Source of the DNA: Geosiphon pyriformis uo1
Taxonomy: Eukaryota; Fungi; Glomeromycota
NCBI GenBank assembly: GCA_016748015.1
Contig: JAAOMT010000009.1
Span: 1,072,459 to 1,136,458, forward strand
Direction: 5' to 3'
DNA: 64,000 bases
Each line of letters begins with the position of its first letter. The stretch's first letter is position 1. Of this stretch, positions 13,936 to 54,407 are shown piece by piece. A model generated the notes under the pieces. It was given only the letters and a program-made list of their open reading frames with translations. It did no database searches and was not told the DNA's origin. The position numbers were made by a program, and so were the translations under genes.

Positions 13936-14822
13936 TGTTACAGATGATTATTTGGAGTCTCAAATCAAATAACAAATCTGTAACTTGGTGCTCAATATCT
14001 TGACAATGCTGGTAATACTGGTACATTGGTTGTATATGAAGGTTTTAGAGTTGATGAGTCTTTTGTATAATGAACAGAAATTCTTTGTTTAGGTTATTCA
14101 CAGTTTTCTTGTAAGTTGTTTCCCAATTTCTTTCTCAGCTTGGTGGGTGGATTTATTCTGGCATTTGTGCCTTTTTGGTAAGTTATTCATTAATATATAT
14201 ATAATTTTACCCTTATTTCTGGGTCTTTTACCAGGCTATCCATGATGTTAATTACTCAGCACTTTAATCCTTAATCAATTAGTATTTAACAAAAAAAATC
14301 AAAGAAAGCAAGAAATAAAAAAAAATAAAGAAATAAGCCAAGGTGATGTGCAAATTAGTATCTCATCAATAGCTGTGATTAAGAACTATTGTTCCAGCGT
14401 AGTTAAGTATCAATTATTATCAACATGAAGTGTTGATAGTGGAGAGTAAATTTGGATAGTAGATAATTTATTTAATATTTGTGGAAGGAAGATTTCTAAC
14501 TTCTGATTCTGCTCTTTCTACTTTTAATACTACTGCTATATATACATAATTGATGTTCTACAAAATTGCTCATATTCCCAAGTAATGTGCTATGATTTCT
14601 TGAGCAATGCTCATATTGCTGTACAATGTGCTCTAATTTTCTAATATTGCTTCACATTGCTGTACAATGTGCCGTGTTTTCTGATATTACTCCACATTGC
14701 TGAGCAATGTGCCATGATTTTTGATATTGCTCCACATTACTGAGCAATGTGTTTATGTGCTAAATACTATTTTTTTATTGGTCTATTATTTTTTTATATC
14801 TGTTTTTTTTTTATGAGTAACA
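13936..14822 (-). repeat. Element B 3' LTR
   Basis: TGTTACAG...GTAACA; direct repeat of 33499-34384. Confidence 0.93.
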
Positions 14823-14835
14823 TTATCTCCTTCTT

Positions 14836-15472
14836 TTAATATTGAGCTTTGTCGAAATCTTCATTTTGAATTAATTCTAATACTTCTTTTTCAAGTATTA
14901 TTTGTTCGACTTTGTTTCTCACATCTTCTACTTGTGTATTGTTCATTCTTCCCCATTGGTTAATGGTTATTGTTTTTATTTTAGAGTGTAACAGTATTTC
15001 TGGGTTGTTTCAAAATATGTTGTGTAGTTGGTATATTGTTTTAACATGTAGTGTTGAATTTGTTTTCTTTCTGATAAATTCTTCAATTTGTTGTATTATG
15101 TTTTGGTTGAATATTCTCTTGGTTTTTGTTAATATACAACTCCTGAATATTCAACTTTTAACCTAACTGATAGTAACAATATAATATTGGAAGTTGTTCT
15201 GTTTATTGCTTCCAATTCTCTTTTGTAAGTTTTTTTATTGGTGCTATAATAAGTATTTTCCCAAATGTGTTTTTTACTTTTTCTATTATGTTGTCTGATC
15301 AGTTCTTATTATTTTTTGGTAATTGCTGATATGGTGTATTCTTTGTCTTTTTTTTGGTGTTTTGATAGCAAATTGTTTGGTTGTTAACAATAATTTTTAT
15401 GTCTAAAAGTTGTTAACTTAAGACTTGGAACAATTGTTGAGCTATGGCATAAATATAATCTGGTATTTTCAT
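14836..15472 (-). pseudogene. Element B 3' accessory ORF (unknown function)
   Basis: Manual translation MKIPDYIYAIAQQLFQ...IFNQNIIQQIEEFI...KTIYQLH...TITINQWGRMNNTQ...FDKAQY*. Homologous to the ORFs at the same position in C and D. One +1 frameshift. Confidence 0.75.
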
Positions 15473-15531
15473 TTTTTTGGTTGCCTTTGTTGCGTATACT
15501 GTGTCTTTATATATTTTTTTATTGTTTGATT

Positions 15532-16908
15532 TTATGTGTTTGGTCCAATGATTATGATTGGTTCCAAATCTTATGGAATTTTATCTGGTTGAACTAGTAT
15601 TCGTTGTACTTCTAATTGTGGAATGTTATTGGTAGATGATGATGCTATTTGGTAATATAGTTTCAGTCAATCACCATGTACTGCTTTGGCTAAGATTTTG
15701 TTGTCTCATTTTAGTTTATAAGCTCCATTTCCAAGAATTTCTTCTATGTGAAATGGTCCATCCCATTTGGGATTGAATTTTCTACTCCATTGTTTTTCTG
15801 CTTTGATATAATATAAAAGTACTTTGTCTCCAATTTTGAATTCAACTGGTTTATCTGGTAATTGGTCATCGTATTATTCTTTTTGCTTTTCTTGAGACTT
15901 TTGAATGTTATCAGCTGCTTTTTGTCATCTGTTTTCTAGTGTTTCTATTAGGTCATAGGTTTTTCTCAACAATGTTTCTTGGAAATTAGCTTCTGTTATT
16001 GGTTCTATTGGATATGTGCTGATTTTTTTCTCAACTGGTAATGTTGTTGTTCTACCATATACCAATTCAAATGGTGTTGCTTGTGTAGTATTTTGTCTTA
16101 TTGTCCAATAAGCAAATAATATAGATGGTATAAACAAATCTTATTCATTTTGGTTTTCTTGACTGATTTTGGTAATTGCTTCACACAGTGTTCTATTAAA
16201 CCTTTCAACTAGTCCATTTGTTTGTGGATAATATGGTAATGATAATGGTCTTTTTATCTTAAATCTCTGACTTAATTCTGTTAATGTTCTATTTACAAAA
16301 TGAGTTCCTTGATTTGATAGTAGTTCTTTTAGACATCTATATCAACATATTAAATCTTGATGGACGAATTCAGCAATGAATCCTGCATTTGCTCTTTAAA
16401 TGGTTTTTGCTTCTGGCCATTTAGTGAGATAATCCATGGCTACTGCAATATATCTGTTGCCTTTACTGGTGATTGTTAATGGTCCAATTAAGTCAATTCC
16501 AATGCAATCAAATAGTTGTCTTACTTTAATTGGTCTTAATGGTTTACTTGGTCTTGTTCCTTTTCTTCTTTGACAAGCATTACAATTTTGAACATATTGA
16601 ATGATGTTTGGATATATTGATGGCAAATAATATCTTTTTCTGGTTCTTTCTATGGTTGCCTCTTTATAAAAATGTCCTGCTGTTGGATTTAAGTACATGT
16701 TGAATAATATTGTCTCTTTCTCTGGTTTTGTGATTACTCTGATTGGTTGATCTAGATTTCTTCTGTTCTTCTGGTAGAGTATATTTTGATAATTGATAAA
16801 GTATTTTGATTGTTGTTTTATGTTGTTTTGTTTCTCTTGAGATAATTTTTCCTTGAACAATTGAGTATTTATATAATGCTGAAGTTGTTGGTATTTTTGT
16901 GTGTTTAT
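15532..16908 (-). pseudogene. Element B integrase (HHCC-DDE-GPF)
   Basis: PTAGH..CNAC, GIDLIGP, GLVERFNRTL, KWDGPFHI; no chromodomain seen. Confidence 0.9.
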
Positions 16909-16938
16909 CTTTTATTATATTTTTGGGTTGAAATGTTT

Positions 16939-19516
16939 TTAGATTTGTCTTATTCATGACAGTCCGTTGGCATTTCCATTGTCTTTTCTTTTTTTATAAT
17001 GTATTGTATAATTAAATGGTAAAAGTTCTATTTTCCATCTGACATGGTGATTGTCTGCAAATTCTTGTTTCTGGATTGAAGTCAATCCTTTGTGATCAGT
17101 GTACACTTCAAACTTTTGACTCAAGTATTTCTTCCATTTGATGACAGCCCAATAGATAGCTAAGTGTTCTAGTGCTGGAGTTCTATAGTTCTTCTCAGCT
17201 GGACTTAAGCTTCTACTGGTGTAAGCTACTAGATGTTCTTTTCCATCTAATTCTTTCTGTAATAGTACTGCTCCCAATGCTTGACCTGATGCATCAGTGG
17301 TAATTATGAATGGTTTGCTGTGATCTGGATACATCAATACTGGAGCTTGGATAAGCTTTCTTCTTAATGTGTCAAATGCTTCTTGTTGAGCTTTGGTCCA
17401 TTCATACTTTACATTCTTGGTTTGTAGATGGTGAAGTGGCTGAGCCAGTTTTGAAAAATCTTTGATAAAATGGCAATAATAGCCTATAAAACCTAAAAAT
17501 ACTCTTAGTTCTGTCAAGTTGGTTAGTACTAGAAAGTTCTTAACTACTTTAATCTTGTCTGGATCTGTTTTGATTCCATCTTTGCTTACTACATGTTTCA
17601 AAAACTTGAGTTTAGTTTTTCCAAAGAAACATTTGGTTGCATTTAGTTTCAATTCTGCTCTTCTCAAATTTTCAAACACTTGTTGGAGATGATGCAAATG
17701 ATCATCAAATGTTTTTAAGAACACATTGGTGTTATCCAAGTATATAACTACTGATTTCCATAGTAATCCAGTATAGACAATTTCCATAAGCCATTGGAAT
17801 GTTGCTGGAGCATTTATCAAGCCAAATAGCATGACTTCAAACTCAAAATTTTCTTCTCTTGTAGTGAACACTGTTTTTTCTTTGTTGGCTAGATCCATGG
17901 CTACTTGCCAGTAACTACTATCTAAATCTAGTGTTGAAAACCATTTATTTTCTCCAAAAGCATTAAATAGTTTTTGGATCTTTGAAGTTAGATAGCTATC
18001 ACTTTTTGTTACTCTATTCAGTTTTTGGTAGTCTACACAAAAGTGGATTTTCCCATTTTTTTTATGGACCAGTACCACTGGTGATGACCATGGATTCATT
18101 GATGGCTGAATTAGCCTATTGTTAAGCATTTGGTTAATTTCTTGACAAATGATCTTATGGCTAACTGGTAGTACTCTGTATGCTCTTTGTTTAATTGACA
18201 TTGCATCTCCAGTCTTGATCTGATGCTGGATAATATTGGTTTGGCCAAATTCGTTTTCATTGGCAAAAATGTTATTGAAATTGTTGAGTAACATCTTGAA
18301 TTGCATCTGTTGAAGTGGATCTAGATTTTCCATGTTTATTTGTTCTAATTGTTCTGGTTGGAGCAGATAACATTCACTTCTTCCATAGATGGTTTGTAAT
18401 GTAATGTCCACATATCCACAAAGCTGTAGAAAATCTGGAATGTGGTTTGGTGGTTGATCCTCAACTTCGGTGGTTAAATATCCAATAATGGTTCCCTTTG
18501 GTATTTCGATGACACTTTCAATTGTGTTATAGATGAGAATTTTTATATTTTTGGGGCTTTTGGCTGATATGTAGAGATTAGTGAGTCCAATCTCTCCTGA
18601 TTTACAAATAGTGGCTTCTGCTTCAAACAATTGAGCTTGATCTCTTATTTCTTTTTTTATGGCTAACATATACTAGTCATATAGTGAAATGAAAATTGTT
18701 TAACAGGTTGAAATAATTTCTCCTTTGTTAACAATTTTTTCCTCTGCCATATTAACTGGTATATCTATTCTACTCATTGATTCAAATCCCTGTATTCCTT
18801 TTGTTGTTATACCTAATTTTTTTTTTCCCACTGAAACTAACTGGGCTATCTTTACCAGAGGTAAAAATATTGCCTGTGTTATTTTTTTATTTGGTTCTAT
18901 AATATAGGTCTTTTCTGAGTCATTTTATAGCATAGCAATGATATTTCTTACGTATTCTGTATCAATTATTCCTTCTCTGATGTTGATTTTTTTTTTCACT
19001 AAACTACTCCTAAATACTAATTAAATCATAGTTGTTGCTAAAATTTTCAGAGCTATTTTGAGATCAATATATGTGCACAAATTTGGTTCCAATTTGATGG
19101 CTTCTTTTCCCGAATATCTCAGATCAAATCCTGCATCAGTATTATATGCACGTTCTGGCATGATACTTTTGCCATTATTGCTGAACCATCTAAGTTCTTG
19201 TTCCTTGGTGAGATCAGGAAATGTGATATATTGTTTATAGTTTGAATCAGAGTTTGAATTTGAGTACCAATCATCGCCATTGTTATTACCATATTGAATA
19301 GAGCTGAAACCAGTGTTTTTGTTGTTATCATTATCGGAGTTTGAATCAGAATTGAATGTTGATTCCAATTCAGATATGCAGCTGCTGATTGGTTTTTTTT
19401 CCTCTGAAATTGTGTAGATCATGTGTGGTGGTGGATTGTAAATGAGATCACACTCATTACAATATTGAAAGTCATATGAAATTAAATAGTGGTCACATAG
19501 TTGAGTGTTTAACCAT
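16939..19516 (-). pseudogene. Element B polyprotein, 3' part: dUTPase, RT, RNase H
   Basis: DAGFDLRY (dUTPase motif 1); PWSSPVVLV, FCVDYQKLN, YLDN (from YLDD); TDASGQALGAVL, YTDHKGL. Confidence 0.93.
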
Positions 19517-20178
19517 TGTTACCTAAGTAGAAAAACCAATCCAAAATTATGAAGAAACGTGACCAAAAATGTGACATAACACAGAATAACACGCAATAAC
19601 GTTGGATAATGCATTATAACATTAGATAATGTGTTATAATGCAGGATAACACAGAATAGCACACAATAACATATGATAATGTGTTATAATGCAGGATAAC
19701 ACAGAATAACATGTAATAACATCAGATAACATGTTATAACATAGGATAACTAGCAATAATGTAGAAAAATGAAGCAATAACAGAAACAACAAAGCAATAG
19801 CTAGTGATAGCAAGACAATTAAAAGCAATCCTGTAAAACCAAAAGAATGTATAAAAGCAAGTAGTTGTAGAAGTGAGAAAAGAGAGAGAAGAAAAAAATA
19901 GATATGAATCTCTAGACCAGAAATTAAAATATCCATACACCTTTATCCTTTATTATCTTTCCTATTTCATCTCCAGAAATAAATCAATTATTAAAAGAAA
20001 TCAGAATTGCGAATTCATGTTCTCGAACTTTCATGAAATTTACGTGAATTAACCCTTGTCTCGTACCTCCATTCTAGAACAGATGCTCTTAGCATAATCG
20101 CCTCAAACCTATTAACAATTTAGACTAATCAATCTTAATCATGGCGATTAATGATACTAATTTATTTTTTCTCTCTTT

Positions 20179-20225
<47 letters not shown>

Positions 20226-20632
20226 CTTTTTTTGTCTTAATTTTTTGTGGAGCGGCAACATAGTAAAATTGACTGTCTGGAAATAGACTTCGTGATAGCC
20301 TGGTAAAAGAGAGAAGCTCCCCCTAAGTTTTGGATATTAACATTATCTTGTTAGCTTACCAGAAGGACGAAAAGACAATGCCAGACCCTAACAACTGTGC
20401 TCGTTAGCTCAGAGAAGAAAGCTCACATTTACGAAAAATGTTGCAATTGACGAAAGACAAACTCTATGCCTTATAACCAAAGAACTCAATGGGTAAAATT
20501 CACATCCAGGAATAGACCTTCAGAGACTGATAATTAAGACTAAGCCAACAGAATTATGTGGAAGATGCATCGTCAATAATTGAGAGCACCAAACGTTACC
20601 ATTTTCCATACTCGCCAAGTTTATCCATAACA
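19517..20632 (+). repeat. Element C 5' LTR
   Basis: TGTTACC...TAACA; CCAAT, ATAAC array, TATAAAAG, AATAAA and a poly-T tract. Confidence 0.95.
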
Positions 20633-20651: not shown

Positions 20652-20694
20652 TTATAAATCCACAGAGACAGAGCACCCCCAAAAATACATAAAA

Positions 20695-23600
20695 GTGGCG
20701 ACTATTGGAACAATAGGAAAGGACCACTCCTCGTACAGAAAAGCACTATTTTAATACTTTCGAAAAGACCTAAGAATACCAGCAGGAACCGCTTACGCAG
20801 AAAGTAATTTTTGTAACTATATCAACACAAAAATCGACTGCTTGTTAGGCTACGCAACTGATACAGGAAGACTTGGAGAACAAATCCATCAAAGCTTACT
20901 AGGGTACTCAACAGCCACGACTACCTGAGCAATCACTGAAACTCTGCACATAATCAATACAGACATTAAATATTATGTGGCACAACAATTCCCTCAAGTA
21001 CAACAACCAGTGGAATCCGACCCTGAGGAATACGAAAACGAATCCAACAACCCTGTAACTGCCCAAACCAAGTCTATGGTCAACAAGAAACCAAGGGTCC
21101 TCTTCCCAACAACTCCATCATACCATCAGACACCCCAAAATAGAATTGTATTCAACCCACCTCCGGAAACCCAGTTAGAAACACCACGAATTCTTGGAAA
21201 TCCACACCCTTGGAATCAACACAGTTGGACCAAATCACTAGGAGAATACGGATCACTGTTTGGAAATCTTACCCCAGCAGCCGGTCAAACAGAAGGAAAC
21301 CCGTCAACTTGGAAACAGCCACCAGCACAAAACTTAGCAGAATCAGCATCTCCCCTGATGGAAGAAACAGCTATCTTACAACCTATTGGTTCAAGCGACA
21401 AAGGAAAGCAACCAGCATTAGCACCCAGAGAACACTCGAATATGCAGACACCAATCTCTTTAAACATAACCAGTAACACCCCACCCATTAACCGGATTAT
21501 GGCTTACTGGGATATTGCTAAATTGGAAAAATTCTCTAGTGAAAAAGATAATGCATATTTTTGGATCACAGATGCTGAGAAAGCAATTGCTGCTAACAGT
21601 TGGAATGACGACTGCACAGTTTAGGCACTGCCATTCTTTCTGACCGGAACTGCCGATTCGTGGTACCAGAGTCTGGCAGAGAAGCCTACCTTCTTTACCG
21701 AGTTTAAACTCGCATTTCTGCAATACTTCTGTGACCCCAATATGTTAATCTGATTGCAGAATCAATTCAGCATAATTAAACAAAAAGATCATGAAGCCAT
21801 AACTACTTATTTTGGACAATTTAATCAAATTCTGTGTTAAATATTAGCTATCAAAAAGGACTACTATACTGCAGTGCAAGTTCTTAATCAATTCATTAAA
21901 AAATTGTGGAGTAGTATTCTAAGATCTGTAAGACTCCACCATCCGACCAGTTTACAAGACACTGTCACTCTTGCTCATGATTTTGAGTCTGCAGAACAAG
22001 AAGCAAATCATACCCAAGCCGTTAATTTAGCCATTAATGGAACCTCTGACATCAATGCAAAGATAACCCAATTGAGTGAGAAACTAACTCAGAAAATTAA
22101 GAGATTCTTAGCCAGAACTACAGGAACTTACCAACCACCTCAACGAAGAGAAAATAACAACAACAGTAGATACCCACAGCAACAGCAACAACCTTGGAGA
22201 TCCAATCCTTGTAACTGCTACTACTGCCAGAAACCTGGACATATTGCTCATGACTGCAGAAGGAAGATCATGAACCAAAATCAAGAAAACCCATACCAGC
22301 AACCCAGATATCAGCAAAACATAGTACCCCAATATTCCATACCTCAGAATTAACTGCTCCTATATGCACAACAAATTCCGTACACTCAACCACCACCCCA
22401 GAATTATTATCAACCACCACCAATGACACAAGCAATCCCTCACTATCAAACTTCCCCTTACAGTCCGTCCAGACCATGAGCTATAGACTATAATCAAGGA
22501 TGAAAGAATCCCAACAACAATCAGATGCAAACCAACAGTGGACCATCTCGACCAATTCCTTGCAGTCCTGCCCAATCTCGACCAACACCAACTGGATACC
22601 CGAATCAAGCTTCCTATCTCAGTCTTATGGAAAACCAGGGTTTTGATAAATCTACACCTGTGGAAGGGGGGGATATAGAACAAATCTCCCAACCTTCCAA
22701 GCAAACAAAAAGCAATATCCTACCAGCCACTATTACTGAAGACATCACTCTAGCCACCATATTTTCTTTTGACATCAATAATTTGAACACACATAGCCTT
22801 TTTAGTGGAGCAGTCATCAATCAGGATAAACCAATAACGGCCCTATACACCGATGCCAGAGTCAGAGGAATAGACATTAAATTAATCCTGGATAGCGGAT
22901 CAGCCGGTAGCATAATCACGAAGCAGCTCATGGACCAACTAGGTCGCCGAGTAGACTGTACTGCTACTGTTCAGATCATTACAGCAGATGGGAACACAAA
23001 AACCCCAATAGGAGAAATTGACAACTTCCCCTTCAAGATTAATGGAATCCAAATCCCTACCAAAGTACTCATCATGAAAGCTACTCAATATCAAGCTCTA
23101 GTAGGAAACGACTGGTTGTCAAAAGCCAACGCTACTCTCGACTAGAACACCCAAAAACTTCAACTCACGTTCAACGGACAGCATGCCTGAGTTCCAGCTA
23201 CATGCGGACACTTTAAAAACCAACGTATCGAAGAACCCCTTATTGAATTCAAAAACATATCAATACCACCAACCATCAAGACCTATCAGGTTTCATGGGC
23301 AGATAATTATCGAACTGAACTACCCCCACCACCAACCTGGAAAGAAAAAGGAAAAGGCAGAGCCAAAGAAGAACCCCAATCATCATCACTAGGATATGTA
23401 ATCTCAGACCAAAGAAACTTATTTTACCAACCCCCAAGACTAATATGTGTCGATTGTGAAAAAAAACTATCCACTATGGGCACATGTATCAGGAACAATG
23501 AAGAATGGCCCACTACCACCAAATACTATTGCAGGCCTTGTTTACTGAAAAGATTTGGACAACCAAAACAACAAGGCAAGTGGAACCACATGCCGTGCCT

Positions 23601-26469
23601 TGTATGTGGCAAAATCCTGCCAGATAAAGGACTCTGGAATGATGTGCCTGGCAGAAGAGAAACATGCAATGAGACTTGTCAATACATCATATTAATCAAC
23701 AATTGGGTATGAAAGGGAACCCCTATCAAGAATGCTTGGAAATGAGCATTCAACAGGCTAGATAGTTATCCACACAATGACCACGAAATCTGGAGAATGG
23801 CAAATGCCAAGGCCGAAAGTGCCATGCCCGAAGAAATACGAGAAATTAAGGACAACTCTTGGATGCCCAAATATACTGGACCCGACTACCCCAAGGATGA
23901 TTTCTTCACAGATGACCCAGATGCATTTCAGAACCGATATCAGGAATTGGCCCCAACTTGTGAGGAACAGGAGCAAAGGTTGGCTGATTTGAATACCAAA
24001 CTATGTGATCACTGTTTGATCTCCTATCACTTCCAGTACTGCGATGAATGTAATCTCATGTTCAATCTACCTCCAAGAATACTGTTTCCAATCACCAAAC
24101 TACCTGAACCCAAAGAAGAGGTATTGATCACTGAGGACATGTTGTTTCAAGATCCAACTGAGGATACTGAAACAGAATAGTATCTTGCATATCCCGACCT
24201 ATCCAAAGAATTAGAGCTAAAATGGTATAGTGACAATAAGGAAGAAATCTGCTTCAAAAAAGCGCATAACACCAATGCCGGTTTTGATCTACAATACTCT
24301 GGACAATCACCCATTATTATAGCCCCACATTCCCTCGTAAAAATAGATCTTAAGATAGCATTAGAAATTCCTGTTAGTACAATAGTACAAGTTGCCTTTT
24401 GATCTAGTCTAGCCAAAAAAGGAATCAACATAAAAGGAGGAATCATCAATGCTGGTTACACGGAAAACATCATCGTGATGTTACAGAACAATTCAAACAG
24501 ACCCTACAAAATAGAATCACAAGAAAAGATTGCCCAAACTATCTTCCTATCCCTAGTCAAAATACCCCAATTAACCCCGGTAACAATCCGAGAAGAGTTA
24601 GGCCTCACTGCTCAAGGAATCAATGGGTTTGAATTAAGTGGAAGAGGAAACATACTAATTAATTTTACGGAGGAAGACAGTGACCAAGTAGAATTTATCC
24701 ATACTGACACCATCATTTCTATTCCCCCATACTGACAATACATTCTCAAGGTGAATCGAAAGATCCAAGATCAAGCCCTATTATTCAAAGCCAGTCCCAA
24801 AATCTGTTCTTTAGCCGATGTTGCTAATCTATACCTACTGGCCAAAGTCCATAAACACTTCAAAATCCCCATCCACAACTCAACAGAAGATGTTATTGAA
24901 ATCCCTGAAGGGACCCTCATTGGTTTTATATCTGCAGATAGTCAGAATTCTGAAAAACCCCAGTCCATTCCAGATTTTGCACAATTATTCTTATTCTGTG
25001 ACATTACCTTACAAGTATGGAATTTGCCAAAAAAAAGTTACTTGTTTACACCAGAAGAGATCAATAAATTGAATTTATGAAATTTAAGTACTCTGCAACA
25101 AATGCAACTCAAAGTCTTTCTGAATCAGTATGCCGATGTCTTTGCCAGCGAAAATAAGTTTGGACACACCGACATCATAAAGCATCAGATTGATACAGGA
25201 GATGCTCGACCAATTAAGCAATGAGCTTACTGCGTACCCCCATCTGGCGATAACCTAATTAAGCAAGAAGTGCAACAGATGCTTGATAACAGCTTAATCA
25301 AAGAATTGTTAAGCTCTTGGTCCTTGCCAGTAGTCTTGGTCACCAAGAAAAACAGAAAAGTGCGATTCTGCATAGATTATTGAAAACTAAATAGCATCAC
25401 ATGAGGAGATAGTTATCCTACTCCCCTCATCCAGGAAATTCTGAACAATCTAGGGAAAAAGAAATGGTTCTTGTCATTAGATTTAGCAAGTGGTTACTGG
25501 CAAGTTGAAATGGACTCCAAAGACAAAGGAAAAACAGCATTTACCACTCAAGATGGAAACTTCGAGTTTAATGTAATGCCTTTTAGACTTTGTAATGCTC
25601 TTGCCATGTTTCAACACCTGATAGATGTAGTATACAAAGGAATCCTTTGGAAATCAATAGTAGTCTACCTAGATAACACAAACGTGTTCTCCGAAACATT
25701 TGAAGACCATCTGCTCCATCTGCAACAAGTCTTCAAATGCTTTCATAGTGCTGGATTGAAACTCAATCCCGAGAAGTGCTTCTTTGGAAAAACCGAATTA
25801 AAATTTCTAGAACATGTAATCGGCAAGGACAGAGTTAAACCCAATCCAGATAAAGTACAAAAAGTCAAGGATTTTCCAGCCCCAATCAACCTTAGAGAAT
25901 TATGAAGATTTCTAGGATTAGCAGGATATTATCATCAATTTGTCAAAGGTTTCTCGAACATCACAAAACCACTTCATTAATTGTTGTCCAAATATGTACC
26001 GTACTTGTAGAAGGAAGATCAACAGAAAGCATTCGACTATCTTAAGCAGCGATTGATCACATCCCCAATCTTAATTTATCCAGATTTCACTAAATAGTTC
26101 ATTGTTGCTACGGATGCCTTAAAAAATGCTTTAGGAGCAGTCTTATCACAGATAGGACTGGACAATAGAGAACATCCAGTTGCCTACACTAGTCGCAGCA
26201 CTAGTCCAACAGAAAAGAATTATAGCACAACAGATCTGGAATGTCTCACCATTTATTGGGCCATACAGACTTGGAAACATTACCTCAGTTAACCATTTAA
26301 CCTATATACCGACCACAAAGAACTTATTTGGTTACTCAACAATCCACAACTAGAAAAAAAATATGCGAGATGGAGTACTTATCTGTAACAATTCCCACTC
26401 AAAGTCCATTACAAGGAAGGATCCAAGAACACCAATGCTGACAGTTTGTTGAGGATGCCACAAACTTAA
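20695..26469 (+). pseudogene. Element C single gag-PR-Cys-rich-dUTPase-RT-RNase H polyprotein (1924 codons)
   Basis: The ORF-track pieces at 20977, 21874, 22525, 23476, 23797, 24475, 24751 and 25471 are all in frame with GTG 20695. Motifs CYYCQKPGHIAHDC, LILDSGSAGS, AGFDL, YLDN, YTDH. Confidence 0.93.
24220..24645 (+). pseudogene. dUTPase domain of element C
   Basis: Five trimeric-dUTPase motifs in order: AGFDL, (R)SSLA, GIINAGYT, EKIAQ, QGINGFELSG. Equivalents in B (~18770-19190) and D (~49975-50390). Confidence 0.9.
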
Positions 26470-26479
26470 TCCCAGACCC

Positions 26480-27846
26480 ATGGACACACTCACTTATTAA
26501 CAACTACATCAGTACCTATCAACACTATGTTTCAAGGAGATATTATCTCAACAGGAACAGAGTACCATATGAAAACAAGCCCGAAATTATTTTATTCAAG
26601 ACAACCAACTATATCGATGAGAACGCCGAAACCACCCCAACCCATAACGACTAATCACGGACAGTGAAAGAGAAACTATACTATATAATGTGCACTCAGA
26701 TCCAACTGCAGGACACTTTAACAAAGACACTACCCTCAAAAGAACACTAAACTTATACTATTGGCCAACAATACACAAAGACATTTTCAAATACGTGCTC
26801 AATTATAATGCATGCCAGCAAAGAGAAGAAGCAAGATCAACAGAACCACTTCGATCTATTCCAGTTGGAAATCTATTTGATAGAATCAGGATCAATTTAG
26901 TTGGACCTCTTTCAATTACATCCCAAGGAAATCACTATATCACTGTAGCCATAGACTATCTTATAAAATGGCCAGAAGCCAGAGCAATCCAAGTGGCTGA
27001 TGCCAAAACAGTCGCCAAATTTGTGCATCAAAACCTAATTTGCTGACATGGATGTCTGAAAGAATTATTATCTGATCAGGGAACACACTTCATTAATAAT
27101 ACACTGACTGAACTAAGCCAATGGTTTGGAATAAAGAGACCCTTATTGTCACTATACCACTCACAAATGAACAGACTGGTAGAATGGTTTAACAGAACAC
27201 TGTGTAAAGCACTAGCAAAAATAAGTCATGAAAACAGACAAGAATGGGACTTATTCATATCTTCTGTACTCTTTGCATACCAAACATTGAAACAAAATAT
27301 GACTCAGTTCACACCGTTCAAACTAGTCTATGGAAGAAAAGCTACGTTACCGATTGAACGAATGATACCATCATATTCAACAGAAACAATTAATGAAGAG
27401 AATTTTGAGGCTATCTTACACCAAAAAATATACCAGCTAATGGAAATGTTGGAAAACAATCAAAGAACAGCAGCTGACAATATTAGTCACGCTCAAGAAC
27501 GACAAAAAAAAAACATGATAAACACCTGCCAGAACAACCAATGGAATTCAAGATTGGAGACCAAGTACTGTTACATCATACAAAAGCTAAGAAACAGTGA
27601 AGTGGAAAGTTTGATCCAAAGTGAGACAATTCGTTTCACATACACGAAGCATTAAGAAATGGAGCTTATAAATTACGATTGGAAGACAGAATTTTAAAGA
27701 AAATAGCACATAGAAATCGGTTAAAAATTTATCATGTAAAACAGGAATCATCGTCATCAGTACCTCAACTAGGAACACAAATTTCATTAATCAGACCAGA
27801 AGATATACCATGAGATCTGGAACCAATTATCGTTATCGAAACGTAG
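26480..27846 (+). pseudogene. Element C integrase, separate ORF
   Basis: Own ATG 10 nt after the pol stop, in the +1 frame. HSDPTAGH..NAC, INLVGP, SDQGTHF, LVEWFNRTL. One frameshift in the A-run at ~27505. Confidence 0.9.
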
Positions 27847-27926
27847 ACAACGGGCAGCCAATTAAATTGGGGAATTCAAATATATATAGCATCCAAAAAG
27901 CAGCAAGAAACAATAGAAATTTCAAC

Positions 27927-28655
27927 ATAGATCTTTCAGATCAAATTTTAAAATTATCTAAACAATTATTTGAAACAATTCAAAAATTGACATCTCAAAT
28001 AGAAATAACAATTAATAAAAAAGAAATACAGTACAAAGATAAGAGCAGGAGAGGGAAGGATGAGAGTTCAATTAGAACTAAATGTTTTCTCTCCTACTCA
28101 CCATCCGAAAGGCAATGTGAGAGGAAAAATTGCCTTCGGGCAGGAGGTGGAAAAGAAGGAGGCAAAGAATGAGAAAAAGGTTACAAAAGAAGATACTTGG
28201 TTCCTGAGCTCGAAGAAATAAAACAAGCTTTAGCTCATGGGACTGAACTCCCTGAAACAGGGGAGTGGACACCTGACAACACCCAGGAATGGAAAGAAAG
28301 ACTTTCTCCAGCTTATTGGTTTTACAAAATTGGAGAACAGCTTAACTTGAAAACACCATATGAAGACCTCAGCCAGAAAATGTTCAACAAAGAAGCAATA
28401 CAACAAATAAAAAAATTTGTAGAGAAAAACAACCTGACTCTACATTACAAAGCAGCATACCGACTATATGTCACCTTCCAACATTGCCCAAACGTACTAC
28501 TGAATGGATCTATGAAAATCATAATGGTTAACAGCATAGAACAAATAACCAATCAACAGTTCAAAGACCTACAAAAGGCAATACTCGAGGCAACAATCGA
28601 ACATTACATGAACAAAGCCACAATAACAGATACATATGGTTTCGCAGGAGCTTAA
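27927..28655 (+). pseudogene. Element C 3' accessory ORF (unknown function)
   Basis: ORF-track pieces 27810..28172 and 28197..28655 share one frame, separated by a TGA (probably from CGA). The homologous start aligns to ATA at 27927. Ends just before the PPT. Confidence 0.78.
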
Positions 28656-28659
28656 TTTT

Positions 28660-28675
28660 AAAAAGAGAGAGATAA
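28660..28675 (+). promoter_or_regulatory. Polypurine tract of C
   Basis: AAAAAGAGAGAGATAA directly before the 3' LTR; equivalents in A, B and D. Confidence 0.85.
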
Positions 28676-29330
28676 TATTACCCAAGTAGAAAAACCAATC
28701 CAAAGTTATGAAGAAACATGACCAAAAACATGACATAACACAGAATAATGCACAATAACGTTGAATAATGCGTTATAACATTGGATAACATGTTATAACA
28801 CAGGATAATACAGAATAGCGTGCAATAACATAGAATAACATGTTATAATGCAGAATAACACAGAATAACATGTAATAATGTCAGATAATGTGTTATAACA
28901 TAGGATAACTAGCAATAACATAAAAAAACGAAGCAATAACAGAAACAACAAAGCAATAGCTAGCAATAGCGAGACAATCGAAAGCAATCCTGTAAAACCA
29001 AAAGAATGTATAAAAGCAAGTAGTTGTAAAAGTGAGAAAAAAGAGAAAAGAAAAAAATAGATACAAACCTCTAGACCAGAAATTAAAATATCCATACTCC
29101 TTCATCCTTTATTATCTTTCCTATTTCATCTCTGGAAATAAATCAATTATTAAAAGAAATCAAAATCGCGAATTCATGTTCTCGAACTTTCGTGAAATTT
29201 ACGTGAATTAACTCTTGTTTTATACCTCCGTTCTAGAACAGATGCTCTTAGCATAACCACCTCGAACCTATTAACAATTTGGACCAATTGCTCTTGATCA
29301 CGGCGATTGACAATACTAATTTATCTTTTC

Positions 29331-29364
<34 letters not shown>

Positions 29365-29771
29365 CTTTTTTTGTCTTAATTTTTTGTGGAGTGGCAATAT
29401 AGTAAAATTGACTGTCTGGGAATAGACTTCGTGATAGCCTGGTAAAAGAGGGAAGCTCCCTTTAAGTTTTGGATATTAACATTATCTTGTTAGCTTACCA
29501 GAAGAGCGAAAAGACAATGCCAAACTCTAACAACTGTACTTGTTAACTCGGAGAAGAAAGTTCACATTTACGAAAAACGTTGCAATTGACGAAAGACAAA
29601 CTTTGTGCCTTATAACCAAAAAACTCAACAGGTAAAATTCACATCCAGAAATAGACCTTCAGAAACTGATAATTAAGACTAAGCCAACAGAATTACGTGG
29701 AAGATGCATCATCAATAATTGAAAGCACCAAATGTTACCATTTCTCATACCCACCAAGTTTACCTGTAACA
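28676..29771 (+). repeat. Element C 3' LTR
   Basis: TATTACC...GTAACA; direct repeat of 19517-20632. Confidence 0.95.
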
Positions 29772-32700
29772 CCGTGCTAACCACTTTTTCTGTTCTTTTT
29801 TGTAGGTGCCAAAGTTTGATAGTGTTCATAAAATTCTTCTGGTTCCAGGAGATTTATGGCTGGTTTTTTGTCCCAGTCAAGTTCTATAGGTTCCAATAGG
29901 TTGTTTTTGATCTCCCTAATTTTTTCGGGTGTCATTCCTTCTATTTTTATGAGTGCCATTCACCAGATCTTATTGTTGTCATGTGGACAACTGTCTAATT
30001 GTTGTACTGCTCTTTTCCAGACTGCTTCTATCAATGTTTCTTTCCTTATCCAGTCACTGATTAGAATCATGTATTGGCATGATTTGTTGCATGTTCTTTC
30101 TCGCCCTGGAATGTCATTCCATATTCCTTCATCCAAGAAAGTTTCTCCACAAGTGAGACAAGATTGGTTGTCCCAATTTCTTTGCTTCTTTGGTTGTTCA
30201 AATCTTTCTATGATACATGTGTGACAGTAGAATTTAGTTGCTGTTGCATATTTCTTATTGTCATCACAACATGTGCCCATTGACAACAATTTTTTACTAC
30301 AATTGATACATATAAGTTTTGGTCGACAATAGATAGATTATGGTGGTGTAGTGTAAGTGTAGGAGTTAAAAAAAATGGTGTTGGTGGTTGTTGTTTTTTT
30401 TTCTTTCTCTTTTTCCTTTCCTTTATCATTTTCTTCTTTCTATTCCCAGTTTGGTGTCTGCTCATTTTTGTCATTGTTAGTTCAGGTTAGCTTGTCAGTC
30501 TTTCAGGTAATTTCTTCTCTTTGTTTACCCTTTCCAATATTGTCTTATAATAGTATTGGTGGCAGCTCATTGTGGTCTTTGTCGGCCCATAAGACTTGAT
30601 ACACTTTCCAGATAGGTTTCTTTTTTTCTTCTTCCAATTCGATAAGTGGGGTTGTCGAGTTGGTGGTCTTAAAGTGGCCACACGTGGCTGGTACACATGT
30701 GTGTTAACCATTTTGACTGAATTGTAATTTTTGAGTAGTCTAATTGAGTATGGCATTAGTTTTGAATAATCAATCATTGCCTACCAATGCTTGATATTAG
30801 GTTGCTTCTATCACTAGTACTTTGATGGGTATTATGATGCCATTGATCTCAATTGGGAAGTTATTAATTTTGCCAATTGGAGTTTTGGTCACTCCATCAG
30901 CTATAATAATGCATGCACTGGCAGCTCGATTAACCCAGCAACCTAATTGGTCCATAAGTTGTCATGTGATGATACTGCCAGCTAATCTACTATCTAGGAT
31001 CAATTTGATGGCATGGCCATCAACTTTTGTATCAGTGTACATGACAGTAATGGGTTTTTTTTCCAGAGCAGCTCCACTAAATAATGGTGTGGTCAATGGT
31101 TTTTCAAGTTCAAATGAAAAGATGGTGTCCAGTGATTTGTTCTTGGTGATAATAGCTGGCAGAATGTTGCTGGTAAGTGTTAGATGTTGGTTGGTTTCTG
31201 GGTTATTGGGTTGGGCATCTTCTGGGGTGACCAAGAGACTTAAATAGTTCTGAAAATTCGGGTTTTGGATATATCTGGTGCCCGAATTCTATTGTTGAGA
31301 GCCTAATAGTTGTGCCATAGAACTGAAGATCGGTTGATGAACTACCATTGATGATCTCCAGCTTTGTTGGGTCAATCTCGGCCTTTGGATTCCATTTTGA
31401 AGTAAGTTCTGTGGCAGTGTTTGAATTTGTTGGGGCTGATATATTACCTAAGGCTGTGGCTAATAAATGGGTTGTGGCTGTGGCTGATAAATTGCTGGTG
31501 TCATTGGTTAATAAATTGACGTTTAATATACTGGTGGTTGATAAGATGGCTGCTGCTTCATAGGCAAGTAATTCTGATGATATAGTTTGGAGTTCGGTGA
31601 GTTATTTGGAATTTGAAATCAGTAATCAGGATTTTGATATTGATTTCCCAATTATTGGTTATTTAAGCAATAGCAGCAATCAATTTGTAAGTGTTTTTGT
31701 TTACCACAATAGTGGCAGACACGTGTTTTCTATTGCCACTGTTGGTTGGTCGATGATGATAGATGTGACTGATTTTGGAAGTGATTCACATTTCTGGAAT
31801 TATTGCATCATTGTGGTGGTTGATAAATTGCATGATTGTCAGCTAAGTATCTCTCTAATTTTTGATTGATGGAATTACTAAATTGTTTTAATTTGGAATC
31901 CAATTTAGATGATCCATTCATTACTAGATTAATGGCTTGGATGTGGTTAGCTTCAAGTTCAGTGGCTTCAAAATCTCTGGCATTTGTGACAGCTGCTTGC
32001 AGATTAATGAGATGCATTGGATGTATGCATTGCAAAATGCTACTGCATAATCCGCGAATAAACTGATTTAGAATCTAGGCTACTGTGAAATAATTGGGAT
32101 TAATGACTTGAATCTAGTGCAAATTCCTGTGGAAGCATCCTAAGTAAGTAGTGACTGCTTCATTTTTTCTTTGTTTGATAGTAGTGAAGGTGGTTGCTAG
32201 CCTGTTAATGCTGTTATTGTTGCTGAAGTATCTTAGGAACTCTATTTTGAATACATTGAAATCTTGGGGTTTGTTAATTAGGCTTTAGTACTATGAATTA
32301 GCAGTATCTTAGAGAAAATATGGAATGGCTTGCATGGCTCTGGCATCATTCCATCCATTAGCTGTAATGGCTTTCTCCATATCATTTAGCCATACTTGGG
32401 CATTGTCCTCTTCACCAGTGAATTTTTCGAGTTTGGCTATTGGTGTGTATGCTATTGGGTCTAAGTTGGGTTGTAGCAGTTGTTGGAGTAGTACTAGTGG
32501 CTGTTGAATCTGCTGGTGTGGTTGTTATAGTGGCTGGCCAATCAGTTCAATTGGTGGTGGATTAATGACAATAACGGGAGATAAGTCCAATTGATTAATT
32601 AGATCAGAGTTTTGATTGTTCTAATTTGGTGGTGGTTGAATATTCGGAGTTTCAAGTTCCAGGTTTTCTAAATTTGAATTTTGCTGGGTTTGAAAATTCG

Positions 32701-33436
32701 GGGTTCCAAATTCCGAGTTTTCTATGATCGGGTTCTGGTAAGTAAATTCTTGATCTTCAGATTCTTCTTCTTCCTCTTTTTCTGATTCTGTTATTTCCCA
32801 AAGACTCATGTTTCTGAAATCTGGTTGAAATGGTGGTAATTAAAATCCTGATGGCATTGGCAATTGCAATTTAAATCCTTCAAAGTAATCACTGTATGGT
32901 CCTAATAACTCTGCTTTTTGTTGTTTACTTTGAAATGAGAAGCATCCAAAGGTTGATGTCACATTTGATGTGAACATATCTGTTAATGAGATGTTGATGG
33001 CACTTCTGGGCATATAATAGTATGATGGATGGGTGGGTGATTCAACTTGGGTTTTCTTCCAATTGAGTAGTTGAATTTGTTTTGGTGTTACTGCTGGGGT
33101 TTGCAATCTTCCTTTGCCTTTATCTGTATAGGTGATGGGAAATTGTTGTTGTGTATACCTTTCAATAGTTTGATTGATTTCCCTAATAATTGGTGCAAAA
33201 CTGTAGTTTCTTGGTAAGCTAGTATGTTGAAATAATTCTGTATAGAAATTTTCTCTTGCAGATTTAATGTTAACTGTTCCTCTTAAGCAGTCTGTGATTT
33301 TATCATTGATGTAAAAATTGAAGGCTGATTCTACTGAGAAATAATTATTGTTCAATCCTAATTGTTGACTGTACTGTTGGAATAAAGATTTGGCAAATCC
33401 TAAATAGTTTGTTTCTATGATTTCTGATTCTGCCAC
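29772..33436 (-). pseudogene. Element B polyprotein, 5' part: gag, CCHC, protease, Cys-rich domain
   Basis: PIAKLEKFTGE capsid-like start, CHYCGK knuckle, KLILDSRLAGSI protease and CxxC repeats. Reading continues across the C insertion. Confidence 0.88.
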
Positions 33437-33498
33437 TTTTGGATAATTGTTGATGGTACTGGTTCTCTGTAAAATTATACCTTATAGAGAGCACCAAA

Positions 33499-34384
33499 TA
33501 TTACAGATAATTATTTGGAGTCTCAAATCAAATAACAAATCCATAACTTGGTGCTCAATATCTTGACAATGCTGATAATATTAGTACATTGGTTGTATCT
33601 GAAGGTTTTAGAGTTGATAAGTTCTTTGTATAATGGACAAAGATTCTTTGTTTAGGTTATTCACAGTTTTCTTGTAAGTTGTTTCCCAATTTCTTTCTCA
33701 GCTTGGTGGCTGAATTTATTCTGGCATTTGTGCTCTTTTGGTAAGCTATTCGTTAATATATATATAATTTTATTCTTATTTCTGGGTCTTTTACCAGGCT
33801 ATCCGTGATGTCAATTACTTAGTGCTTTAATTCTTAATTAGTTAGTATTTAACAAGAAAAATCAAAGAAAGCAAGAAATAAAAGAAAATAAAGAAATAAA
33901 CCAAGGCAATGTGCAAGTTAGTATCTCGTCAATAGCCATGATCAAGAGCTATTGTTCCAGCATAGTTAAGTATCAATTGCTATCAACATGAAGTGTTGAT
34001 AGTGAAAAGTGGATTTGGATAATAAATAATTTATTTAATATTTGTGGAAGGAAGATTTCTAACTTCTGATTCTGTTCTTTCTATTTTTAATGCTACTGCT
34101 ATATATACATAATTGATGTTTTATGAGATCATTCACATTCTTGAGCAATGTGTTATAATTTCTTGAGCAATGCTCACATTGCTGTATAATGTGCTCTAAT
34201 TTTTTAACATTGCTCCATATTATGCAGCAATATGCCATGCTTTCTAACATTGCTCCACATTGCTGAGCAATATGCCATGATTTCTGACATTGCTCTACAT
34301 TGCTGAACAATGTGCTTATGTGCTAAATACTATTCTCTTATTGGTCTACTATTTTTTTATATCTGTTTTTTTTTATGAGTAACA
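33499..34384 (-). repeat. Element B 5' LTR
   Basis: TATTACAG...GTAACA; adjacent to the PBS. Confidence 0.93.
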
Positions 34385-45146: not shown

Positions 45147-45987
45147 TGTTACAGATGATTATTTGGGGTCTCAAATCAAATAACAAATCCATAACTTGGT
45201 GCTCAATATCTTAACAAGACTGGTAACACTGGCACGTTGGTTGTATCTGAAGGTTTTTAGAGTTGAGTCTTTATATAATGGGCAGAGATTTAATTGATGG
45301 TTTTATCCATAACTTTCTGAAACCACAGTTTCATCAAATTTTTTTCTTAATGTGGTGGCCAGTAATCTTCCTGGTAAGCTATCCTTAAATCTATGAGTGT
45401 TCTACCCTTGTTTCGTGGGTCTTTTACCAGTCTCTATGATGTTTGTATCTCAGCACTTAATCCTTAATCAATTTCAGTAAAACCAAAGAAATAACAACAA
45501 AAATAAAAGAAAATAAAAGAAAATAAAGAAAATAACAAAAAGCAATTGCAAGTTAGTATTCCATCAATAGCCATGATCAAGAACTATTGTTTCAGTGTTG
45601 TTAAGTATCAATTATTATCAACATGAAGTGTTAATAGTAAAGAGTGGATTGAGATAGTGAATAATCATTTATTAATATTTGTGATTTGGAAAGTTGCTTA
45701 GATAAAATTTAAATGGAGAGGATTTCTAATTAAGGATTCTGCCTTTTTTACTTCTAATACTACTGCTATATATATATAATTGAGATTCCTTAATTCCTCG
45801 ATTCTTTATCTCAGAAATCCTGCAATTCCTTTTAAGAGGAATCCTGGAATTCTAAAATTCTGTAATTCCTTGCTCGGAAAATCCTGAAATTCCTCTTAAG
45901 AGGAATCCTGGAATTCCACATTTACTATGGTTACCTCTAATTGGCTATTTCATGTACTAATATATTTTCTATATTCTATGAATAACA
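45147..45987 (-). repeat. Element D 3' LTR
   Basis: TGTTACAG...ATAACA. Confidence 0.93.
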
Positions 45988-46001
45988 TTATTCCCTCTTT
46001 T

Positions 46002-46638
46002 TTAATATTGAGCTCTGTCAAGATCTTTTAAATCTCCTAAATCTTCTAACTCTAATTCTTTGTCATTGAGTATTTCTTGAACTTCTCTTTCAAGAATGAT
46101 TTGAGTTATCTGGTTCTGCAATTCTTCAAATTGGGTGTTGGTCATTTTTCTCATTTGGTTAATTGTAATGGAGTCCAATTCTGGATTGAGTAAGATTTCC
46201 AGTCTGTCTTAAAATCTCATATGTAGCTAATAGATGGCTCTTGCTTGTGTGATCAGATTGTTCTTTTCCACAAATTGTTCTAGTTGTTGCAGTATTGCTG
46301 TGTTGAATAATCATTTTCTATAAGTTCTAAATGTTCAAGTGCTGTCCCAAGTGGAAGTAACAGAAGTTTCTTGAAAATTTGTGTATCCATCATTTCCATG
46401 TTTCTTTGGTTAACTCTTGATATGTGGTAATACTTGTTGGTTCCTCAATTGCTAATTTTATTTTTAGAACCATTTTGTCGATAGTGTTTTCTGTTTTCTT
46501 TTTACTTTTGTATTTGGATATCTTTCTGGTATCTTGGTATCAAATGGTTTGTTGATTGATAGTAATTTCTATATTCTGTTGTTAAATCAGTTTGAATAGT
46601 TATTGTGCTAGTAAGTAGATGTTATCAGTAATCTCCAT
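46002..46638 (-). pseudogene. Element D 3' accessory ORF (unknown function)
   Basis: MEITDNIYLLAQ.LFKLI..QNIEITIN...LFNTAILQQLEQFVEKNNL...ITINQMRKMTNTQF...DRAQY*; homologous to B and C. Confidence 0.75.
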
Positions 46639-46695
46639 TTTTTTTTGATATCTTTTGTCACGTCTACCATGTCTTTATATATTCTTTTTGGTTGA

Positions 46696-48078
46696 TCACT
46701 TTTTTATGTTTGTGTTGATAACGACGATTGGTTCTAAATCTCATAGAATTTTATCTGGTTTAACTAATAGTCTCTGTACTCCCAATTGTAGAATGTTACT
46801 AATAGATGGTAACATTATATTGTGGTATGGTTTTAGTCGATCTCCATGTGCTGCTTTTGTCAAGATTTTGCTGTCCAATCTTAATTTATAAGCTCCATTT
46901 TCTAGAATTTCTTCTATGTGAAATGGTTCGTCCCATTTGGGGTCAAATTTTCCACTCCATTGTTTTTCTGCTTTGGTATAATGTAAGAGTACTTTGTCTT
47001 CAATCTTAAACTCAACTGGTTTGTCTGGTAGTTGACTATTGTGTCTTTTTTTCTGTTTCTCTTGTGACTTTTGAATATTATCAACTGCTCTTCTTTGTTT
47101 GTTTTCCAATATTTCTATTAAGTCATATGTTCTTCTCAACAATGTTTTCTGGAAATTTTCTTCTGTTATTGGTTCAGTTGGATATGTGTTGACTTCTATT
47201 TCAACTGGTATTATTGCTGTTTTACCATATACTGATTCAAATGGTGTTGCTTGTATAGTATCTTGCTTCATTGTTCAATAAGCAAATAGTACTGATAGTA
47301 TGAACAAATCCCATTCATTCTGGTTTTTTTGGCTGAGTTTGGCAATTGCTTTACACAATGTTCTATTAAATCTTTCAACTAAACCATTTGTTTATGGATG
47401 ATATAGTAATAATAGTGACCTTTTAATTCCGAATCTTTGGCTCAATTCTGCTAGTGTTCTGTTTACAAAGTGAGTTCTTTGATCTGATAATAATTCTTTT
47501 GGACATCCATGTCGACAAATCAAGTCTTGATGAACAAATTTGGCAATGGATTCTGCATCTGCTCTTTGAATTGCTTTTGTTTCTGGCCATTTAGTGAGAT
47601 AGTCCATGACTACTGCAATATATCTATTTCTTTTGCTGATAATTGTTAATGGTCCGACTAAATCAATTCCAATGTAATTAAATGGTTGTTCCACTTTGAT
47701 TGGTTTTAATGGCTCACTGGGTTTTGTTCTTCCTCTTCTTTAACAAGCATCACAATTTTGAACATATTGAATAATGTCTGAATACATTGATGGCCAATAG
47801 TATCTTTTTCTGGTCCTTTCCATGGTTGTTTCTTTGTGGAAATGTCCTGCTGTTGGATCTAAGTGCATGTTGAACAGTATTGTTTCTTTCTCTGGCTCTG
47901 TAATTACCCTGGTTGGTTGATCTGAATTTTGTCTATTCTTCTGGTAAAGTATATTTTGATGATTGATAAAATATTTTGATTGTTGCTTGATGTTATTTTG
48001 TTTCTTTTAAGATAACTTTTCCTTGAACTGTTGTGTATTTATATAGTGTTAAAGCTATTGGTATTTTTCTGTGTTCAT
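46696..48078 (-). pseudogene. Element D integrase, separate ORF
   Basis: ATG at 48078 (MNTEKY..), 62 nt after the pol stop and out of frame. HLDPTAGH..CDAC, IDLVGP, SDQRTHF, LVERFN, KWDEPF. Confidence 0.9.
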
Positions 48079-48140
48079 CTTTTTGTTATATTTTTATTGG
48101 TTTTGGTTTGGTTTTGTTATATTTTTGGGTTGAAATGTTT

Positions 48141-54100: not shown

Positions 54101-54348
54101 ATGGATGCAAAATTGTGATTTGTTGGTAAGCTGGTGTTTTGTATTAATTCATGGTAAAAAGTTTCTCTCACTGATTTAATGTTTACTGGTGTCCCTAACA
54201 AATAGGCAATTCTCTCATTGACATAGAAATTGAAGGCTGATTCTACTGATATATAATTGTGATTTAATCCCAAGTGTTAACAGTAGTGTTAAAATAAGGA
54301 TTTTGTGAATCCTAAATAGTTTGCTCCTATACTTTCTGATTCTGCCAC
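48141..54348 (-). pseudogene. Element D gag-PR-Cys-rich-dUTPase-RT-RNase H polyprotein
   Basis: GTG at 54348; APIAKLNNFTG, LILDSGSAGS, dUTPase RSSLAKR/GGIINTEYIG/KIAQ, intact YLDD. A few homopolymer frameshifts. Confidence 0.93.
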
Positions 54349-54407
54349 TGTTGATTAGTTGTTGGTGCTGGTTCTCTGTAAAATTATACTTCACAGAGAG
54401 CACCAAA

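Follow-up and report, generated by a model that had tools for sequence, protein, structure and literature searches.

We analysed a 64,000-nucleotide (nt) stretch of the genome of the glomeromycotan fungus Geosiphon pyriformis uo1 (contig JAAOMT010000009.1, positions 1,072,459 to 1,136,458; hereafter the window), which contains three Gypsy-like long terminal repeat (LTR) elements, named B, C and D, and three non-LTR elements that look L1-like by eye. In all three LTR elements the gag-pol frame ends after RNase H, and the integrase (IN) lies behind it in an open reading frame (ORF) of its own. Sequence comparisons confirmed this split as real, ancestral and lineage-wide, and they make it very probable that IN is initiated at a separate AUG. 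The three elements are decayed members of a Ty3/Gypsy lineage with a separate IN; that this IN is translated by reinitiation is the likeliest reading but, in our judgement, has no more than an even chance of being right.

The pol stop and the integrase frame in the window and its families

The TAA that closes gag-pol sits six codons past the RNase H motif NxDxL(S)R in B, C and D alike. An earlier note on this DNA had read these junctions as a true stop followed by a stand-alone IN, and rechecking the coordinates (Table 1) bore out its description of each: IN begins at an ATG in the +1 frame in C and at an out-of-frame ATG in D, and in B the same stop is followed by an in-frame spacer and an ATA at the homologous Met. 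Translation and Pfam place capsid-like, CCHC, protease, dUTPase, reverse transcriptase (RT) and RNase H regions in a single frame of C; the Pfam matches for RT and RNase H were scored on copy B, and the RT-RNase H of C reached 468 bits with a custom profile. The IN ORF of C is itself decayed, with a frameshift near 27515, and that of D runs from 48078 for 453 codons in one frame with 7 decay stops. In all copies the decay consists of C>T and G>A changes.

A lone stop carries little weight in copies so decayed (the gag-pol frame of C has 1846 codons, 23 of them stops), and the ancestry of the junction stop was therefore tested with contigs of the two element families. These contigs come from one sequencing run (X1), possibly of the window's own sample, so that they test the family and not another host; 2221 contigs covered 601 nt of the C family and 1150 contigs covered 171 nt of the B/D family, with summed depth not equivalent to copy number. 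Two other runs, X2 and X3, gave no matching contigs. Three internal stops of the C family have C in most of the depth (87% at 26290, 94% at 26386 and 75% at 26498), whereas the junction TAA and ATG were absent from the best-supported 40 of 158 differences and no insertion or deletion reached 3%. The lowest share shown among those 40 was 34%, and 5 of 15 T>C sites were hidden, which leaves room for a minority of copies with CAA at the stop. In the B/D family, for which the list is complete, none of the 14 differences at or above 4% hits the stop (48141-3), a second in-frame TAA (48117-9) or the ATG.

Because the family contigs keep the junction TAA while the decay stops mostly read CAA, the junction stop is, on this comparison, ancestral and not a product of decay. 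A majority of copies with CAA at the stop and an in-frame spacer, which the earlier note had named as the contrary pattern, was not found in these contigs, and its view that a genuine stop precedes an IN with an ORF to itself was supported in both families and across the lineage. Its treatment of the spacers needs qualifying. At 48080, 71% of the B/D depth lacks one base, the spacer is of low complexity, and depth and loose ends together suggest that the short, in-frame, B-like spacer is the common form of that family and the long spacer of D a minority. The lengths of 10, 30 and 62 nt are therefore not three independent draws. The caveat that the spacer of B is in frame probably applies to the family as a whole, although the second TAA is kept across the B/D contigs.

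The split layout across relatives and its origin

A search with the IN of D yielded 758 near-length homologues, and the 120 of them that are listed measure 390-451 amino acids (aa), most sharing the same start Met. The column of this Met is invariant in a 55-row alignment, a result partly built in by ORF calling. The named proteins within the split clade described below belong to Rhizophagus irregularis, R. clarus and Cetraspora pellucida, which makes a Glomeromycotina host likely for the window elements, and the lineage likely derives from mycorrhizal fungi. Of 80 metagenome loci baited with IN, 41 also hold RT-RNase H, and the two genes are split in 41 of 41; RT-RNase H was not seen on the contigs of the remaining 39, which are left uncounted. 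RT-RNase H and IN are fused in two distant loci on viral contigs. Fully intact ORFs occur in several of the loci, for example L007, with a gag-pol of 1612 aa and an IN of 424 aa.

In line with a check proposed in the earlier note, spacer length modulo 3 was tabulated for 40 resolved junctions (L052 was dropped, no Met being found). The stop closing pol is TAA in 26 loci, TAG in 10 and TGA in 5. Spacers range from -20 to 1600 nt with remainders of 0, 1 and 2 in 8, 13 and 19 junctions, and the IN frame has a stop of its own between the pol stop and the AUG in 31 of 40. Stop and start overlap in 5 of 40, including TAATG in L048 and L068 and overlaps of -14 and -20, and 2-nt spacers are found in 2 more.

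In a control set baited with RT, 83 loci were fetched, 10 of them without visible IN, and RT-RNase H and IN are fused in 69 of the 73 assessable loci. Four loci are unfused. One of them, L126, is the sole member of the split clade and has a separate IN with its own Met; the remaining three, outside that clade, resemble single lesions. The three closest long homologues among the RT-baited proteins lack IN, as do 12 of 120 overall, 5 of them in the clade. All six representative proteins in the clade lack IN, but an IN-less protein record is not proof of a split, because 5 of 10 representatives from outside the clade lack it too; these 16 were examined out of 150 single-stretch matches, in a search crowded by multi-RT gene models.

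In an RT-RNase H tree of 252 rows, a single clade of 42 takes in 34 split rows together with 5 IN-less proteins and 3 gene models; it is supported at 89 by FastTree and at 92 by the quick IQ-TREE SH-aLRT on 90 rows, and no continuous fused ORF was found within it. The sister of this clade is the fused protein P0261, and the clade is nested among fused RT-RNase H-IN polyproteins of Gypsy architecture, in a tree built without named reference lineages or a Copia, BEL or retrovirus outgroup. The IN tree likewise groups 44 split rows and 4 gene models (support 92), with fused INs as nearest relatives; both trees were rooted at the midpoint only. The two trees agree (Mantel 0.63, reached by 0 of 999 permutations; 22 of 31 splits in common), and IN therefore travels in cis. 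Since the split clade is nested among fused elements, we infer that IN separated by fission from a fused ancestor, probably at the seam between RNase H and the YPYY motif.

Some points tell against so uniform a picture. Stand-alone INs served as bait for the first locus set, which includes near-duplicates, the RT support quoted is that of quick trees, and five Glomeromycota gene models join upstream domains to a split-type IN (four RT-IN, one Gag-IN). Three of the joined models delete the C-terminal motif of RNase H, each at a different place, and to judge from the protein models the joins would be predicted introns bridging the stop.

If the stop were mutational decay, or IN an unrelated Ginger-type transposon beside IN-less elements, the heavy decay of the window copies and the likeness of the IN start and target sites to Ginger1 would fit. 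The stop, however, is fixed in the family contigs and is found in loci with intact ORFs; IN is located between the LTRs, the RT and IN trees agree, the nearest IN relatives are fused Gypsy INs, and monophyly with Ginger was rejected (see below). We regard either explanation as very improbable.

Several further features of the relatives were recorded. Between its RNase H and IN, L026 (5345-7011) has two extra ORFs (427 and 127 aa) linked in a chain by overlaps, TAATG among them, with an 11-nt overlap onto IN. Three proteins outside the split clade (P0137 from Calcarisporiella, P0490 and P0492) end 5-13 residues past RNase H and may be further splits, decay or truncation. In one subclade (L007, L016, L021, L027, L031, L032, L036; P0126, P0127, P0140, P0426) gag-pol continues for 215-343 residues past RNase H with Cys/His motifs seen by eye, and this extension is a candidate IN-recruiting or extra domain. 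Many of the bacterial and archaeal metagenome-assembled genome records among L096-L174 hold eukaryotic Gypsy pol genes, likely through binning contamination.

A third conserved, stand-alone ORF of about 140 aa (ORF3) follows IN in about 29 loci (for example L027:5455-5874). Its model, built on a 17-row alignment after 8 of 25 candidate rows were dropped when one was found to hold a stop, is all-helical and confident (pLDDT 95.5). ORF3 gave no Pfam match below E 0.03, no BFVD match and only generic Atlas neighbours, and its best PDB match had Z 4.8 with a root-mean-square deviation of 3.3 over 70 residues. The window copies B, C and D also share a 3' ORF (tblastn from C to B and D, E 6e-11 and 4e-15), for which hhalign to ORF3 gave just 0.2% and 0.8%.

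Translation of the separate integrase

In the reading we favour, ribosomes would terminate at the pol stop on genomic RNA and then reinitiate at the IN AUG. Reinitiation would be direct where stop and start overlap or lie no more than about 30 nt apart, as in C and B, and over longer spacers it would proceed by scanning or be aided by structured RNA; subclades may differ in their route. Reinitiation after long ORFs has precedents in fungal viruses and SART1, and when it depends on the ribosome-binding site upstream of termination known as TURBS the start lies within about 20-30 nt of the stop (PMC10275272, excerpt). C (10 nt) and B (30 nt) fall within this range and 33 of 40 relatives outside it. 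A purine stands at -3 in 62 of 64 IN AUGs as against 250 of 431 internal AUGs.

Other observations count against reinitiation. The signal at -3 is partly due to A-richness. Spacers are 30 nt or shorter in just 7 of 40 junctions and exceed 100 nt in 13, although some long values are inflated by decay stops (L014 and L015 probably, L017 and L040 possibly). The six tested spacers above 150 nt hold AUGs at chance level (34 versus 32), which fits scanning reinitiation poorly, and the depletion of AUGs in spacers of 31-150 nt (6 versus 18) is unspecific, the control word GTA standing at 4 versus 14. It is because most spacers exceed 30 nt and the long ones keep their AUGs that we place reinitiation no higher than even.

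The AUG-rich long spacers would be more readily explained if IN, with the 3' ORF, came from a subgenomic RNA, made from an internal promoter or by splicing from near the 5' LTR, in which the spacer is the 5' leader. This is the main rival, although clearly less probable than reinitiation. It would suit the second stand-alone ORF behind IN, reached over spacers of 3-1238 nt, the possible branch site and AG immediately upstream of the AUG of C, and the strong Kozak-like context, a feature that TURBS-type reinitiation can do without (PMC10275272, excerpt). Words of TAACGG, repeated in one spacer group as seen by eye, also favour it. TAACGG resembles a Myb site. However, in 7 of 40 junctions (5 with overlaps, 2 with spacers of 2 nt) there is no room for a non-coding leader, and a general acceptor signal was not seen. 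The splicing route offered in the earlier note found no general support at the IN AUG, where a branch site with YAG occurs in 6 of 64 cases against 41 of 431 internal AUGs, without enrichment; in 10 of the 64 the final 30 nt lack an AG altogether. As a separate observation, the spacers of L049, L050, L056, L058, L060, L064, L071 and L080 are about 75-98 nt long and contain no AUG, several repeat TAACGG, and 7 of the 8 have no AG in the last 30 nt.

We also found, in 34 of 82 loci, a sense-strand hairpin of 40-45 nt whose end lies 0-30 nt ahead of the IN AUG; its model was built from 29 of these loci. Compensatory changes affect 9 of its 11 pairs, pairing holds in 95.9% of cells, its score is reached by 0 of 500 shuffles and slid controls score far lower, with the structure drawn from the same sequences as were scored. 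In L016 (4457-4506) and 33 other loci the hairpin has an 11-nt, purine-rich, one-sided loop. It had no Rfam match near threshold in 10 loci, and its pattern had no exact match in genome contigs or viral contigs. Such a structured RNA might act like an internal ribosome entry site and bring ribosomes to the IN AUG independently of pol termination, and its position, its covariation and its distance from known Rfam families would be in keeping with that role. Against this, the hairpin was not found in the window (best E 2.6) or in other subclades, it is small and no stabler than shuffles (z -0.3 to -0.6), and it may instead be a packaging or protein-binding site; we consider such entry unlikely. 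Folding of the window junctions was inconsistent (z +0.6, -0.9 and -2.3).

A Pol-IN fusion might still be made by readthrough, frameshifting or a stop-removing intron. The common spacer of B/D is probably in frame, 9 of 40 loci have an IN frame that stays open through the stop (as does that of C save for one decay stop), five gene models make the join, and the lineage appears to use readthrough at gag/pol, where 7 of 9 in-frame stops examined are TGA-CTA. TGA-CTA is a readthrough context. It lies between gag-protease and RT in L046 (2498-2503), L042 (2882-2887), L054 (3290-3295), L075 (780-785) and L069 (902-907), and between gag and protease in L038 (3552-3557) and L039 (4661-4666), so that programmed readthrough is likely at two different positions within one lineage. 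None of 40 pol/IN stops has this context, however; they show three stop codons, three frames and no common surroundings. The IN frame is closed in 31 of 40, frameshifting could serve at most 9 of 40 junctions, B/D keep a second conserved TAA, and three of the gene models cut the RNase H motif at differing places. Because stop identity, frame and context vary among loci, readthrough and frameshifting at pol/IN are unlikely, and a fusion by any of these routes appears quite improbable.

As for how a separately translated IN would reach the cDNA, we lean slightly towards IN being assembled along with the particle, by way of contacts with RNA or Gag, rather than its acting on cDNA after release.

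Window features and comparison with known systems

Table 1. Coordinates of the LTR elements and their parts in the window
Feature	Position	Strand	Remarks
Element C, whole	19517-29771	+	Inserted into element B; LTRs 88.8% identical to each other
Element C, 5' LTR	19517..20632	+	TGTTA...TAACA; TGGTGC-type primer-binding site next; left flank CCAT
Element C, gag-pol frame	20929..26469	+	Ends with TAA 26467-26469; 23 internal stops; start not defined
Element C, spacer from pol stop to IN ATG	26470..26479	+	10 nt, non-coding; family contigs without insertion or deletion at or above 3%
Element C, IN ORF	26480..27846	+	YPYY-type N-terminus, H2C2 zinc finger, rve core, C-terminal GPY/F-type region
Element C, additional 3' ORF after IN	27810..28655	+	No Pfam match
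Element C, 3' LTR	28676..29771	+	Polypurine tract before it; right flank CCGT
Element B, 3' part	13936..19516	-	RT-RNase H, IN, 3' ORF, 3' LTR 13936-14822
Element B, 5' part	29772..34384	-	5' LTR about 33498-34384, gag/protease region
Element B, junction	16906..16941	-	TAA 16941-16939, 30-nt in-frame spacer, two further TAA, ATA 16908 at homologous Met
Element D, whole	45147..55281	-	LTRs 54408-55281 and 45147-45987, gag-pol, IN ORF
Element D, junction	48076..48143	-	TAA 48143-48141, 62-nt spacer, ATG 48078

Besides the features of Table 1, a Cys-rich region lies between protease and dUTPase (23190-24180, + strand, and the matching part of D) with a weak LIM match (E 0.004), and C and the matching part of D hold a second unassigned gag-pol segment between dUTPase and RT. 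More LTRs of the B/D group are found on the minus strand at 12569-13497 (a 3' LTR), 35022-35912 (a 5' LTR with primer-binding site) and 55282-55996 (a truncated LTR abutting the 5' LTR of D). The three decayed non-LTR elements occupy 1000-7900 (+), 39500-44700 (-) and 57200-64000 (+), with endonuclease, RT and a C-terminal RNase H-like region recognised by eye.

Retroviruses and LTR retrotransposons bring integrase to the particle within Gag-Pol or Pol. A lineage that lacks the Gag-Pol-IN link and is nonetheless successful (thousands of contigs in one run, many soil-metagenome families) indicates that the link is dispensable, and a separately made IN would require a non-textbook route to the DNA it inserts. 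How a downstream enzyme is translated from a eukaryotic polycistronic RNA, and whether integrase needs to be packaged, thereby become testable questions. In the literature searched, the scope of which excluded subscription papers, Repbase entries and supplements, no LTR retrotransposon was found to be described as having IN in a separate ORF; the excerpt of PMC11952901 does not mention integrase and that of bioRxiv 10.1101/2021.03.30.436303 has nothing on a separate IN. In annotation, a split IN is either labelled a lone DDE integrase or linked to pol through predicted introns, and screens for rve only, which serves as a Ginger marker in PMC5751038 (excerpt), could miscount such INs as Ginger DNA transposons.

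The position of the downstream ORF on or beside the stop of a long ORF, with TAATG in L048, L068 and L026, is shared with the stop-restart systems of CHV1 (UAAUG), HvV190S, caliciviruses and SART1 (PMC10275272, excerpt). Unlike in those systems, most spacers here exceed 30 nt, and no upstream TURBS-like element was identified. Troyka was considered as a precedent and dropped, having a 3-bp target site duplication and CG termini (PMC12440569, excerpt).

Like Ty3/Gypsy elements, B, C and D have TG..CA LTRs, a primer-binding site, a polypurine tract, the order gag-protease-RT-RNase H-IN, an H2C2/rve IN and a short target duplication (C: CCAT/CCGT; B: CCAT/TCAT). Within Ty3/Gypsy (Metaviridae) they come nearest to the YPYY-bearing group related to Athila/Tat, the YPYY motif occurring in a subset of Gypsy INs (PMC2836005, excerpt), and a dUTPase between protease and RT is also found in PosPlaTy3-5 (PMC2864245, excerpt). 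A chromodomain, the mark of chromoviruses, had no Pfam match in the full IN of D, nor did it figure in the domain lists of the 120 near-length homologues. They differ from Ty3/Gypsy in the extra 3' ORF, and from fungal Gypsy elements in the place of IN, which is there described as a pol domain (PMC3248453, excerpt). The lineage is therefore a non-canonical Gypsy type and not a canonical member, given that IN lies outside pol.

Ginger1 has a YPYY motif, TGTNR ends and 4-bp CCGG/CCGT targets, and its origin from Gypsy has been discussed (PMC2836005, excerpt). The split IN resembles it as a stand-alone YPYY-H2C2-DDE-GPY/F protein with its own Met (YPYY and GPY/F recognised by eye), and the elements share its TGTNR ends. 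Five Ginger1-like proteins, labelled by OTU/Ulp1/PHD Pfam architecture only, start at the same place as the split IN, a few residues before YPYY. Each of the 9 LTR flanks in the window agrees with CCGG/CCGT/ACGG once C>T and G>A decay is allowed for, against a background of 14.6%; they represent about six independent events, and the pattern was fixed after the flanks had been seen. Unlike Ginger1, the elements have direct LTRs and not terminal inverted repeats, carry RT and Gag in cis and show no OTU, Ulp1 or PHD domain, the IN homologues ending at about 400-450 aa. A constraint that groups the split INs with the two nearest Ginger-like rows was rejected (p-AU 0.013; 58 rows, LG+G4, 5 Ginger-like rows), which points to parallel or deeper kinship and not to shown ancestry. 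The comparison with Ginger that the earlier note suggested thus yielded a common start position and target preference but, in this small sample, no sister relationship.

The lineage also offers a concrete route from Gypsy integrases to Ginger1-type transposases, a step left open in the excerpt of PMC2836005. A bolder and rather doubtful proposal is that IN in this fungal LTR lineage has turned into a free, Ginger1-like transposase, which would start from its own AUG at YPYY, never form part of Gag-Pol or undergo a protease cut, capture cDNA ends outside the particle and insert them at CCGG/CCGT, aided in one subclade by the hairpin. If that were true, the free-IN lineage would be a living example of the proposed intermediate between Gypsy retrotransposons and Ginger1 DNA transposons.

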